This document shows, one piece after another, positions 41,502 through 54,030 of a stretch of 64,000 nt of DNA. Numbering within the stretch: position 1 is the stretch's first letter; every line of letters starts with the position of its first letter. The notes under the pieces are model-generated. The model was not told where the DNA came from. It searched no databases and was given only the letters and a program-made list of their open reading frames with translations. Where the stretch lies: NCBI GenBank assembly GCA_030693145.1, contig JAUYBI010000068.1:16374-80373 (forward strand). The letters run 5' to 3'. This DNA is from Candidatus Omnitrophota bacterium (GTDB lineage Bacteria > Omnitrophota > Gorgyraeia > Gygaellales > Profunditerraquicolaceae). A program made the position numbers and the translations under genes.

Positions 41502-41600
41502 CTATAATAAACTCTGCTGACTTTTATTAACAATAGTGGGGTGGGTTTAAACCCACCCTACTATTGAAAGTCAACAAGGTTTATTACACTGTCATTTGAT
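41502..41600. repeat. Repeat family A, copy 2 (aactctgctgacttttattaa ... tagtggggtggg-tttaaa-cccaccctacta ... ttgaaagtcaacaaggtttattacactg)
   Basis: About 95-nt match to 53925-54030 in the same orientation. The stem has compensatory substitutions relative to copies 1 and 3. Confidence 0.85.
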
Positions 41601-41662
41601 GGGATTTTTCTTTTTAAGAGAACCTTCTGATCATGGGACTGTTGCGAAATTCAATTTGTACC

Positions 41663-41729
41663 GTCATTCTGAGGCCGAAGGCCGAAGAATCTCGACGCTG
41701 ATAAGATCCTTCGCTTCGCTCAGGATGAC
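41663..41729. repeat. Repeat family C variant copy
   Basis: gtcattctgaggccgaaggccgaagaatctcg ... gatccttcgcttcgctcaggatgac. The + strand track ORF at 41596..41784 is its spurious translation. Confidence 0.75.
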
Positions 41730-41960
41730 GGAGAATGGCATTTCGCAACAGGCTCATTATATAAGAATAGATGGCCTCAGATAAAAACTCCCTGTCTTTC
41801 GAACAGAAAGCTGGAGAAAAATCGTAATTTGTAAAATTAGAGAAAAATTGGCAGGTTTTATAAAATTTTAGTACAAATTGTAACTTTATCGTAGTGCTGG
41901 GCTCTAAGTTTATAAGTTTTATGCGCCTATTTGAACGGGCTAAACAAAAACGGTCTAAGA

Positions 41961-42647
41961 TTATTCACGGGGTTCTTGTTCTGCTTCCAGTTTTATCTGA
42001 TGCTGCCAGATGAAAAAGAATCCGGCGCCTAAAATACCAAGAAATATAACAATGAATAAAATAATCTTCCAGGTAAATTTGGCTAATCCTTTAGGTGCGA
42101 CTTCTGACAAAAGGGTCTTTGCGGCTACCAAATCAGCCTTGGCGGAATTAAGCAAACTCAAACTATTGCGATAATTAGAAATTTTATAATCCGGACCGAC
42201 AGATGACAGATCTTGCATAGCCTCTGCCTCTTTTAATTTATTATCTACCCCATCATAGAGCGGTTTGGCGCGGTCATAATAATCTGTTTTCTTGAATTCA
42301 TCCAAGATTGCTTTAGCATCCTGACGCATTATTGCTATCTGGGTTGGATCAATCACCCAAACATCTTTAATCTCTATTTCTTTTTCTAATTTCTCTTTGG
42401 GCTCAAGCAAATATTCACCGAAAACATAATAACTCCCTTGTTGGGCGTCATAAGCAATCTCAAGGTCGCCTTTATAAAGAACATCTTCGGGTTTTACTTC
42501 TAAAGGAAGGTAAACTTTAATCGGAACTGTTTTATCTGAATCAGCGGGATTTACAGCTATAAGACGCATAGTAATTCCAGCTTGGGCGGGTATGCAAAAT
42601 AACAAACCAAAAACAAAAAACAGAAAAGCAAACTTCCTAATTTTCAT
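41961..42647 (-). CDS. Signal-peptide protein with a C-terminal transmembrane anchor, hypothetical; immediately downstream of the giant surface protein
   Basis: 228 aa. N-terminal signal peptide with AQAG cleavage context. C-terminal TM segment KIILFIVIFLGILGAGFFFIW. Confidence 0.5.
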   Translation of the reverse strand: MKIRKFAFLFFVFGLLFCIPAQAGITMRLIAVNPADSDKTVPIKVYLPLEVKPEDVLYKGDLEIAYDAQQGSYYVFGEYLLEPKEKLEKEIEIKDVWVIDPTQIAIMRQDAKAILDEFKKTDYYDRAKPLYDGVDNKLKEAEAMQDLSSVGPDYKISNYRNSLSLLNSAKADLVAAKTLLSEVAPKGLAKFTWKIILFIVIFLGILGAGFFFIWQHQIKLEAEQEPRE

Positions 42648-42695
42648 ACTTATACGCGCTGCATACCGTAACTATGGTTGAACTAAAGTATAAAT

Positions 42696-45600
42696 TTATT
42701 TAAATTCAAACCAGCTCTGCACAACAGGTTTCTTATTCTGGTCTTCAATCAACTTTTTATTAATTTCCATGGCCGCTTTTAACTCTTCAGACTTATTCTT
42801 AATGTAAGTTATATCATTATTTTTATCTTTGGAAACTTCATAAAGTTTTTCAAGGTTAATCCCTTTTGTCCCGCCGATATCCTCAATCTGCTTGCTTATC
42901 GCCTCCAGCTGTTTAAAAGCGCTGGCCAGATCATCTACCGCGTTCTTGGTATCTCCGAGTTTACCGGCAATATCTTTACTAATCTTAGTCAATAGTTTAT
43001 CCATATCATTAAACTGTAAACCTATTGTTTCAGCAACATTCTTTAATCCGCTTATACCGGAGGTTGAACCTAAAACCGCAGAAACCTGCCCGGAAACATC
43101 CTCTAAATTAGATTGAGTCACCGTCATCACCAAAGCATCAACAGTACCATTGGTAGACTCGGAACAAATCACAGTAAAAGTGCCTAAGCCCCAACTGGCT
43201 AAAAATGTAACATTATATTCATAAATACCTGCAGCGCCTATCTCTGTCATTCCTTTGTTTGAAAGAAGCAGGACGTCCTTAGGGCTGTAAATGTTTAAAA
43301 CAGGAGCTAAGCCGGTAACAGTACGGTAACGTATGGTCATCTTTCCACCCTGTTTAATCGTCGTTTCGCTGTTAAGAATCCCCGAGGTTATATGCGGCTT
43401 AATCTTGGTAGCAATGTTATCCGTTATCGCTGTTTGTGCTGTGGTTATCTGCGCAGGTATGGCGGTAGTAGTAGTTAAAATCTGCCCTGCTTGAGCACTT
43501 ACTTGCGCAACCTTTGCCTGAGTAGCCGCAGCCGTAGACTCTATTTTCGACGTCAGTTGCGACCTGGTAAGAGCCCCTTCAGAGGCAACCGAAGCCGCAA
43601 TCTGCCCGGCCAGAGTATTTAAAGTTGACATTACCGAGATAGTAAAATCATTGGCCGCCGAATACGTGACATTCGTTGATAAATCGACTCCGCCGTAGAG
43701 AATAGTCATTTTGGCAAAATAATTCCTGCCCCTGACAAAACCCTTTGCCGCTACGGCATTATCAATATTAAAATAATAATTGCTGTTTGCATCAGTCACA
43801 GCCAATGAAGCGGTATATTTAGGATTAACCGCGTCGGAACTATCGAAGATCTTCAAAGTGCTGGTTTTTAGAGTATTTATGTCATCGCTGGTAATCTGCT
43901 TACCTCTTTTCTCCAGCCGCACCAAGCCAGTTATCCGGTCATTAGCTTCATCGTAGACAAAGTTACTTAATACTTTGTAATCCGCCAGAGATTCAGCAGT
44001 GGACATAAGAAACACGGTCCAGCTAATATTATTGTCGTACGCGCCATCAACCGCATCCGCGGAGACATTCGCAGTCTTATCAACTGTACTCTCTACGTAT
44101 GCGGTTTTATTAAAATTAAAACTATAATTTCCGTAAGGCAAATTAAACGAAAATGGGCTATTACCGATTATCGGGTTGGTAAGGCCGGTGACTAATTGTC
44201 CGGTGTTTGAATCAATAATCTTAAGCGTAAGTTCGGTCAATGGGCTGCCATTTACCGAATCAAATGCTTTCATTGTAATCGCATATTTTTCTACTACGGT
44301 TACATTATTAGATGCGCCGCTGGCGGTAACTCCAGCGGCAGTGGCATTTAAGGTAACTATCCCCGGATAAACTGCGCAATACACCGCAAGATTATCAAAA
44401 GTCGCTATACCGGATACCGTTGCCACTTGAGCAGTTGCTCCCGCTCTCAAAGTGCCTCCAGTAGGGGCAACCGTTAGATTAATTGCGCTGGGAGCGATAT
44501 TTCCATAAGTATCAACTACACTCACTTTAAACGAAGACCACGGCGCGTTAGCCACCACTGTAGCCACCGGTTGAGTATTCCAAGAAAGTTTACTTGCAGC
44601 GCCGCCGGTAACTACCACAGCTAAGGCATCTGCATCTGGAGTGGTAATTACAGCATCTGAGGTCTTTGTTTTAATAGCCGCGCTTTCAGCTTTATATAAC
44701 TTCATCGTTATAGTCGAAATGCTCTGCCCTGAGGTAAAATTCACCAGCGTAATATTTCCAAATGCTATATCTACCGCCGAATAGTTTGTGCAAGTAGGAT
44801 TATAAGTAGTGCCTCCGCTTGTCGCGGAATTGGCGCCGCTAAAGATTATCTCTTTTACACCGCTATAGTCCGTGTCTAGGTTATTGTTGATATCTGTTGC
44901 TTTAGTAGTTACAGTGCTGCTTGCTCCGGCAGCCACAATAGCGCTGTCTCCGCTAACCATAAATTTAGTAACTGTTACATCAACAACCAAAGAACTGGTT
45001 ATTGCGCCGGCAGCGGCAAATGCTGAACCGGGAGAATCTACGGTAAGGTTAGCAGTGGGGTTAACGCTAAAAGCAATGGCCTTTCCGTCTGCTCCCACAG
45101 GCAAAGTTTGATTGAGGTAAACGCTTAAAGTGTAAGTCTTGCTTTGCCCATCAGGCACAGAAGAAATTATGCTGGTGCCGGTTCCAAAAGTTAAAGCGTC
45201 ATTTGTGATTGTGCCCATTATCGAAGTGGTGCCGTCGGATATGGCGGCTCCGGCAATATAACTCTGCCAACCGCCGGTGGTATCCGTGGCAGTGTTTCTG
45301 GCAATTACAATCTGTTTAAGCTTTGTCGCGTATCCGTCTGAACCGGCATCAGTAACCTTAAAATCAAAAACCTGCAACTTCGCCGCATCAGTATAGATTA
45401 AGGAAGATATACTGGTTGGTTTGACTAACGGGCCGGTTGCGATGGCAGTATCCGCGCCAACCTTAAAGGTTATCTGATAAGAATATATATCCGGCGCCAG
45501 ATTTCCCATTGAATGCGCCTTTAAATATATGCTTTCCGGATAACTATATTTTATCCCGCTAAAAGTTGCCACGCCGTTTACTAGAACCACTGCTAGAGAA

Positions 45601-53486: not shown

Positions 53487-53571
53487 CGCTACTTCCCTCC
53501 TTCTAATCTCTTAGAACTTATAAAATAAAACTCCACGACTTTACGGACGTGGAGTTACGCTGGATAATAAA

Positions 53572-53620
53572 AAAGCCCGAATTTCTAATGACTTAAGAAA
53601 TTCGGGCTTTTTTATCAGCC
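53572..53620. terminator. Bidirectional intrinsic terminator hairpin (aagcccgaatttct-N-agaaattcgggctt) flanked by A/T tracts
   Basis: 13-bp stem with T-runs on both sides. It separates the TA/RAYT region from the DGR target promoter region. Confidence 0.5.
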
Positions 53621-53657
53621 TCTGGCTGACAACTAAAAAATTTTTACTTAAAAAGGA

Positions 53658-53712
53658 GTCTGTCTGTCTGTCTGTCTGTCTGTCTGTCTGTCTGTCTGTC
53701 TGTCTGTCTGTC
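53658..53712. repeat. Tetranucleotide microsatellite (GTCT)n, about 14 units
   Basis: Perfect gtct repeats over about 55 nt, located 170-225 bp upstream of the DGR target gene start. Confidence 0.95.
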
Positions 53713-53924
53713 ATACCATTGTCTCCATTAAAAAATCCCCAGCAGGTTATGCCGGGGATAATTCCCTAAAAAACTTTTTTCACTTCGGCAGTCTGCCTTT
53801 CCGCTTTCGCGGAAGCATAACTTTGCGTCCTCCGATTACCCGGAGTTTGCCTTTTCGGTTCCATTCCTGCTTTTTCTATATATAAGTATAACATAAATTT
53901 TATTCCTTTCAAGCTCCGCACATT

Positions 53925-54030
53925 TTTGACATTATATTAAACTCTGCTGACTTTTATTAATTATCAATTATAGTAGGGGAGGTTTAAACCTCCCCTACTA
54001 TTAAAAGTCAACAAGGTTTGTTACACTGTA
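53925..54030. repeat. Repeat family A, copy 3 (aactctgctgacttttattaattatcaattatagtaggggaggtttaaacctcccctactattaaaagtcaacaaggtttgttacactg)
   Basis: Direct repeat of copy 2 (41502-41600). Together the two copies bracket the DGR plus giant-protein block. Confidence 0.85.

Follow-up and report, generated by a model that had tools for sequence, protein, structure and literature searches.

The Correia elements of Neisseria, the RUP elements of Streptococcus pneumoniae and the ERIC/IRU elements of enterobacteria are non-coding repeats of about 100-150 nt that carry terminal inverted repeats and fold into a hairpin over their whole length. They are dispersed in intergenic DNA near gene ends and promoters, are polymorphic in presence and absence, and sometimes alter the termini of genes. 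Here we describe a repeat that resembles them in all these respects, family A, from a 64-kb stretch of an Omnitrophota genome (contig JAUYBI010000068.1; the whole stretch is called the window). Two of its copies bracket a diversity-generating retroelement (DGR) and the gene of a giant immunoglobulin (Ig)-like protein, and the original prediction, made from the letters of the window, had proposed that these copies were either att-like borders of a mobile island or elements of the repetitive extragenic palindrome (REP) type, with a gene for a REP-associated tyrosine transposase (RAYT) nearby. We conclude that family A is very probably a miniature inverted-repeat transposable element (MITE) of Omnitrophota, a non-coding foldback element of 96-103 nt, and that the copies at 41.5, 54.0 and 7.1 kb (c41k, c54k and c7k) are three independent insertions. 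The broader idea of a dispersed, mobile, palindromic repeat had been put forward already, and copies, duplications and empty sites all agree with it.

We set the extents of the copies from their terminal inverted repeats, target duplications, alignment and a covariance-model search, the model being built from six copies. Run exhaustively over the window with filters off, this search found no full family-A copy beyond the three, to which can be added two copies in 8 kb of L007 (JAHIKK010000035.1), a contig of an Omnitrophota metagenome-assembled genome (MAG); loci outside the window are given L numbers. The architecture is that of one long imperfect palindrome, in which arms of ~30 nt enclose a perfect GC-rich hairpin centred on TTTAAA. 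The imperfect terminal repeat reads GACAYTATAATAAACTCTGCTGACTTTT..., and the outer arms read GACAYTATAATAAACTCTGCTGACTTTTATTA ... TTRAAAGTCAACAAGGTTTRTTACACTGTC. In c41k the terminal inverted repeats are GACACTATAATAAACTCTGCTGACTTTT... and ...AAAGTCAACAAGGTTTATTACACTGTC, and the central hairpin is AATAGTGGGGTGGG-TTTAAA-CCCACCCTACTATT. Whole elements fold back strongly as single-stranded DNA (z = -9.05 to -6.1, with c41k at -9.05), and the 26-nt core GTAGGGGAGGTTTAAACCTCCCCTAC occurs exactly twice in the window, against 0 occurrences in 100 shuffles. No open reading frame (ORF) of at least 20 aa lies inside the 96 nt of c41k, a 31-aa ORF merely clipping its end; comparison with Rfam at gathering and E-value thresholds returned no family, only sub-threshold matches to generic miRNA hairpins; and prediction gave no intrinsic terminator in c54k or c7k and only a marginal minus-strand match in c41k.

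The bracketing copies are both present and share one orientation, as described originally, on the plus strand, but they are less alike than the “near-identical” of that description: c41k and c54k share 84% identity and differ by a 7-nt indel. By comparison, c54k and c7k are 93% identical across 68 nt, and c41k is 96% identical to a family-A copy at L007. Two subfamilies are known, that of c54k being marked by a 7-nt AATTATC insert and a GGGGAGG core, and two copies have decayed: c7k, with a diverged left arm and no right terminus, and L007b. The orthologue of L007 in another MAG, L054, carries a terminal duplication. Two subfamilies, decayed copies and this duplication are together consistent with an ageing transposon family.

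Target duplications and empty sites carry the case for transposition. c41k, c54k and the L007 copy are each flanked by a duplication that is always 8 bp long and differs in sequence among the copies (ACAAAATG on both flanks at L007; Table 1). Measured over the window, the chance of a match at a fixed offset is 8e-5 per position for 8/8 and about 1e-3 for at least 7/8. Because each has its own matching 8-bp duplication, c41k and c54k are separate insertions and not the halves of one event. The L007 site is filled in L007 and L054 and empty in L052 and L053, which read GGATGAAAAATGTTTAAT with a single target copy beside a permease gene whose product is 94-95% identical. The c54k site is empty in four related cassettes (L044/L045/L047, L048, L049), all with a single AAAAATGC; these alleles read ...CAAAAAAATGCG.GGAGCTTGAAA..., and at this point the window adds the 103-nt element and a second AAAAATGY. 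On either flank of c54k homology goes on, at window 54253-54031 and at 53927-53570, the two segments overlapping by 8 nt in the subject, and this continuity, with the empty sites, places c54k inside the cassette. Homology of the outer flank of c41k to L042 and L043 reaches 41497. We assign family A to the MITEs because it combines constant-length but differing duplications with terminal inverted repeats, small size and insertion polymorphism.

Table 1. Family-A copies, the solo core hairpin and target duplications, in window positions.
Feature	Position	Length	Strand	Remark
c41k, full family-A copy (very probably a MITE)	41498-41593	96 nt	+	covariance-model score 113.8 bits
c54k, full family-A copy (very probably a MITE)	53928-54030	103 nt	+	covariance-model score 115.2 bits
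c7k, degenerate family-A copy	7132-7216		+	covariance-model score 82.3 bits
Solo core hairpin, no MITE arms	51096-51125			AGTAGCGGACG-TTTAAA-CGTCCGCTACT
c41k target duplication, outer	41490-41497			ATTTGATG; in DNA homologous to the relatives' promoter-upstream sequence
c41k target duplication, inner	41594-41601			ATTTGATG
c54k target duplication, promoter-proximal	53920-53927			ACATTTTT on plus, AAAAATGT on minus
c54k target duplication, distal	54031-54038			GCATTTTT on plus, AAAAATGC on minus

We infer that family A is mobilised in trans by the DDE transposase of some parent insertion sequence (IS). The transposase would come from a full-length IS elsewhere with the same ends and would bind both ends of the element; cuts staggered by 8 bp would be made at an A/T-rich intergenic target, and gap repair would leave the 8-bp duplication. 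IS families with 8-bp duplications, such as IS256, ISL3, IS6, IS66 and IS1595, offer a lead. The intact copies c41k, c54k and L007a all occupy gaps between transcription units, each with a predicted conserved -35 hexamer 15-16 nt downstream. For c54k the distance is 15 nt and the hexamer is that of the promoter of the riboswitch/DGR cassette, so placed that the element separates this proximal promoter (53912-53885) from conserved upstream DNA with a promoter-like site (54120-54092). We also considered the element as a source of promoters for downstream genes and rejected this as its main role: empty sites have the conserved promoters too, which lie beyond the bounds of the element, and the orientation at L007 is opposite.

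Several results weigh against a MITE. No DDE transposase was found in the window, nor did any autonomous element with matching ends turn up. With the element as query, the genome and metagenome collections led to one further locus only: an arm-loop-arm pattern hit 29 loci in the genome collection, from which the source genome is missing, and L007 alone was genuine, while the metagenome contigs gave nine chance matches and no family-A member. Viral contigs yielded 0 matches to the left end and 0 to the core hairpin, and a plasmid blastn search with family A gave none either. c41k lacks a clean empty site, its inner-flank spacer being hypervariable and without a homologue in any relative. Finally, simple DDE-type MITE biology accounts neither for the compensated changes of the core nor for the armless hairpin of the DGR spacer, both taken up below. 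On the side of a MITE, the only public contig of the same strain that we found, L001 (Logan SRR13727537), encodes an identical deoxyhypusine-synthase-like protein and breaks inside c41k (L001 1-35); its ending there indicates that the MITE fragments short-read assemblies of this organism, as repeats do.

One insertion changed a protein. The minus-strand gene queH (7199-7744; protein end ...AVDFLQ*) takes its five final codons (VDFLQ) and its stop from c7k, in agreement with the earlier observation that this third copy supplies the last queH codons. The QueH Pfam domain is already complete before the tail derived from c7k: the insertion clipped the 3' end of queH and gave QueH a new C-terminal tail. 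On its other neighbour, c7k lies ~30 nt upstream of a GHL10-like gene.

The bracketed interval, from c41k to c54k, is 12.3 kb long and holds what had been listed for it: a 228-aa protein (the predicted membrane protein, without a Pfam match), the 2434-aa protein, the reverse transcriptase (RT), Avd and a variable protein of FGE-sulfatase type. Ig-like domains were seen on homologues of the giant protein. The order of the cassette is promoter, c-di-GMP-I riboswitch, leader ORF, variable protein, Avd, template repeat (TR), RT, giant Ig-like protein and membrane protein. The wider context of this block is what a mobile-island reading draws on, in which the island carries the DGR and the giant protein and c41k and c54k serve either as its att-like borders or as composite-transposon arms. 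In the closest relatives a 682-aa GT9 gene (window 55831-57879) adjoins the deoxyhypusine-synthase-like gene (window 40516-41463), with a gap of 95 nt in L040, where the flanking proteins are 96% identical, and 440 nt in L042, and with a pilin-like ORF between the two in L041. Since these genes are adjacent in L040-L043, window ~41.6-55.83 kb (~41602-55830, ~14.2 kb), which L040, L041 and L042 do not have, is extra DNA; it holds the RAYT-like gene, a Phd/ParE pair, c54k, the cassette, a small inverted-repeat element (41630-41760) and c41k, the last within a few bases of the end of homology to the relatives. The cassette itself stands at other positions in other genomes (upstream of GDT1-LpxK in L049, in a mobile-element-like context in L044-L047) and, from these placements, relocates or is acquired independently. 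Given this recurrence at other Omnitrophota positions, the earlier suspicion of mobility or acquisition was reasonable, and MITE pairs are able to mobilise intervening DNA, as in integron mobilisation units. The copies themselves do not behave as borders. Separate matched duplications border the two copies, and the outer flanks are unlike (ATTTGATG vs GCATTTTT), a mismatch that excludes a composite-transposon event; c54k is embedded in conserved cassette DNA, and its site is empty in four cassettes; and the extra DNA continues to the right for 1.8 kb past c54k, as far as the GT9 stop at 55830. A single repeat copy had been expected at the empty site of relatives lacking the block, but L040-L043 hold no family-A sequence. 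In 221 kb of related loci family A is found only in L054, and beyond that set only in L007. The related loci L044-L051 and L056-L058 have no family-A copies, the outcome named with the original prediction as one that would refute it; at least seven loci, of ~four distinct cassette lineages, are free of family A. One of them, L049, comes from the same MAG as L007, so the MITE is present elsewhere in that genome, yet the cassette is unflanked and its c54k site empty. Pfam scanning found no integrase domain in the island proteins covered, the giant protein being outside that scan, and base composition is ordinary (GC 0.40-0.46 in the block, 0.41-0.45 elsewhere). The two cassette-side spacers are the two largest of the window, with 37% of its intergenic DNA, and three random intergenic insertions would strike both with P = 0.16; the bracketing is incidental because copies fall where free intergenic DNA is. 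Family-A copies neither define nor move the DGR/giant-protein cassette. The island-border reading is already largely refuted, and we give it almost no credence; as the work of a MITE, the bracketing of the DGR block is fairly ordinary.

Family A might also be regarded as repeats of the REP/REPIN type, with the neighbouring RAYT (an IS200-like Y1 transposase) spreading them by recognising a GTAG-plus-hairpin core. Like REPs and REPINs, family A has a GTAG-like head on a short, GC-rich palindrome, lies near a RAYT gene and has invaded intergenic DNA. The core reads GTAG plus palindrome in four of seven instances, GTAG being present in c54k, c7k, L054, L007b and the solo hairpin, the RAYT-like gene (55199-55822) is 1.2 kb away, the REPs associated with it have the same GTAGGGG head, and the armless solo hairpin would suit a hairpin that moves by itself. 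True REP-like doublets also occur in the window. Against this, 8-bp duplications and 30-nt terminal inverted repeats are alien to HUH/Y1 single-strand transposition; HUH-type transposition, by IS200/IS605 and RAYT enzymes, leaves no target duplication. The GTAG of family A is paired within the stem and variable (GTGG in c41k, GCAG in L007a); the palindromes that flank and interrupt the RAYT gene are different REPs, GTAGGGGCAACCC..GGTTGCCC and GTAGGGGCGCCCC..GGGCGCCC, and not family A; and a RAYT stands beside the DGR in L044-L047 and L056, yet no family-A copy is found there. The REP-like description thus fits loosely, in the palindrome and the neighbouring RAYT, and fails on the duplications, the long terminal repeats and the other REPs that go with the RAYT. 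Spread by this RAYT is in our view highly improbable, and a link to it is conceivable through the shared GTAGGGG head and the solo hairpin. Nor do we think it probable that the element is chiefly a cis-regulatory or RNA-structural module of the host (an operator, an insulator or terminator, or a stabiliser of mRNA ends) that transposition has merely spread, an option to which we assign a small likelihood. It would account for an inner helix that is strictly compensatory even between the orthologues L007 and L054, for the three intact copies standing just past the preceding gene and 15-16 nt before a predicted -35 hexamer, for an outward TTAATA-18-TATAAT/TATAGT match in the left arm, and for c54k having one conserved promoter-like site of the cassette leader on either side. 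However, the window and L007 carry the element in opposite orientations to the neighbouring genes, a U-tract after the hairpin is missing in two of three copies, the empty sites indicate that orthologous promoters in relatives work without the element, and no clear strand bias separates G-T from A-C mismatches. A MITE remains the reading that we prefer.

The centre of this MITE evolves in a manner of its own. Covariation analysis over the six copies, as advised with the original prediction, found that the inner 16-bp helix covaries: 99% of its cells are paired, and 6 of the 16 pairs change on both sides. The outer arms (21 pairs, 89-94% paired) show one-sided changes and mismatches only. The compensatory stem differences reported between the bracketing copies are real (GGGGTGGG/CCCACCCT in c41k), and the orthologues L007 and L054 differ within the element by no more than one compensated pair (AGCAGGG..CCCTGCT vs AGTAGGG..CCCTACT) and a 16-nt terminal duplication. 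The palindrome may be kept perfect by the need of the transposition machinery, or of a transcript, for the structure; alternatively, palindrome-templated repair may copy a change from one arm to the other. Selection on structure and palindrome-templated conversion would each give the compensatory pattern, and of the proposal that the hairpin is selected as a structure we can therefore retain the compensatory upkeep, which conversion explains equally. Mismatch cells are G-T in 11 cases and A-C in 3, the outcome of few independent events and without clear strand bias; because, in addition, the orientation to genes varies among genomes, an RNA role is at most a possibility.

The solo hairpin sits between the TR of the DGR (51143-51270) and the RT start (51074), and it has the outer stem and loop of the c54k core with two further compensated inner pairs. 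In studied DGRs the spacer between TR and RT is a part of the DGR RNA needed for priming. Nine related DGR loci have no such hairpin between TR and RT, among them the two closest, with RTs 91% and 89% identical; this rules it out as a conserved DGR component and makes it a recent arrival. Because only compensated changes are seen and because the hairpin occurs without arms exactly in this spacer, we have entertained the idea that the TTTAAA-centred perfect palindrome is a module with a function of its own, beyond forming the centre of a MITE; we consider this unlikely. If it were so, and a structure-specific protein recognised the hairpin, family A would be a chimera of DDE-type ends and the hairpin signal of another mobile system. 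Candidate binders would be the RAYT/HUH nuclease, whose REPs have the same GTAGGGG head, or the RT-Avd complex of the DGR, and the hairpin could then couple the spread of the MITE to DGR or RAYT activity.

The leader of the cassette has further layers. A c-di-GMP-I riboswitch (53784-53861, minus strand, 65.8 bits) heads the DGR/giant Ig-like cassette and is followed by a terminator (53759-53735); the riboswitch is kept before four related cassettes (L044 6506-6583, L045 5649-5726, L048 1041-1118, L049 5157-5234). A full-text literature search found no paper in which DGR control is tied to c-di-GMP riboswitches. After the riboswitch, and ahead of the variable-protein gene, comes a small leader ORF (MTDRQTDRQ...; 53541-53714, minus strand) built on an (AGAC)n tetranucleotide repeat (53650-53716), with 13 copies in the window and 21 in L044/L045/L047/L048, while L049 has (AAGC)8. 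In every assembled locus this ORF runs into or through a terminator-like hairpin, AAGCCCGAATTTCT..AGAAATTCGGGCTTTTTT (53562-53620), and a gain or loss of one repeat unit leads to a stop 35-50 nt ahead of this second hairpin. Judged from its sequence, the leader resembles an attenuator of the leader-peptide kind that is phase-variable and stacked on the riboswitch. Conserved leader DNA reaches ~54406, the part at 54031-54406 (minus strand, ~375 nt, non-coding) being ~80% identical to three other cassettes. The promoter-like site upstream of c54k, at 54120-54092, reads TTGCAA-17-TGnTAAAAT; transcripts from it would traverse c54k into the riboswitch. A Phd/YefM antitoxin and ParE toxin pair (54410-54938) lies between the cassette leader and the RAYT gene and is not in the related cassettes.

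Other small repeats populate the same region. In the RAYT-like ORF the Pfam match to Y1_Tnp is confined to the C-terminal part, GTAG-headed REP-like palindromes lie in and around the ORF (55416-55441; 55787-55815), and a 91-nt segment is present at 99% identity both outside and inside it (55040-55130 and 55450-55540); the gene may have decayed. A second paired-palindrome family, GTCATCCCCGCGAAAGCGGGGATC + ATTCCCGCnnnnGCGGGAAT, occurs at 51375-51424, 51891-51952 and 33095-33158. At 51375-51424 a copy has been inserted between avd and the TR; L048 and L044 do not have it, and its position means that small palindromic repeats have invaded the DGR itself. A third small element (41630-41760) stands between c41k and the end of the cassette; its inverted ends are 27 nt long (GGGACTGTTGCGAAAT...), and related copies lie at window 34757-34825 and L049 1102-1212. 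A palindrome shared by two gene ends, AGGGGACGGTTCTGTTTTTC / GAAAAACAGAACCGTCCCC (5849-5934 and 56853-56914), is probably a repeated terminator-like element.

We suggest that these results matter in several ways. They remove the tempting reading of the DGR/giant-adhesin cassette as an island bounded by MITEs or att sites. A literature search found no papers on MITEs in Omnitrophota, and family A would be the first MITE family described for this phylum, which is known almost only from metagenomes; strain-level population studies gain a marker in its clean filled and empty sites. The central palindrome, with its strictly compensatory changes, is a small, clear case bearing on the upkeep of perfect palindromes. 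The more unusual features of the region are the c-di-GMP riboswitch and the tetranucleotide-repeat leader of the cassette and not family A.

Set against the described systems, family A departs from each in a few definite points. Correia and RUP elements duplicate TA (2 bp), where family A duplicates 8 bp, and there is no sequence similarity. Unlike Correia, RUP and ERIC, family A has a small known copy number, three per 64 kb by the count in the window, and, at its centre, a perfect GC-rich palindrome whose changes are compensatory. REPs are 20-40 nt long and have neither long terminal inverted repeats nor a target duplication; family A has both. The layout of c41k and c54k is reminiscent of integron mobilisation units and of the 439-bp Acinetobacter MITE pair of class 1 integrons, in which two direct MITEs likewise surround a cargo. 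In such MITE-flanked mobilisation units, however, the outer flanks of the pair share one duplication, whereas here each copy has a duplication of its own and c54k lies inside the cassette.

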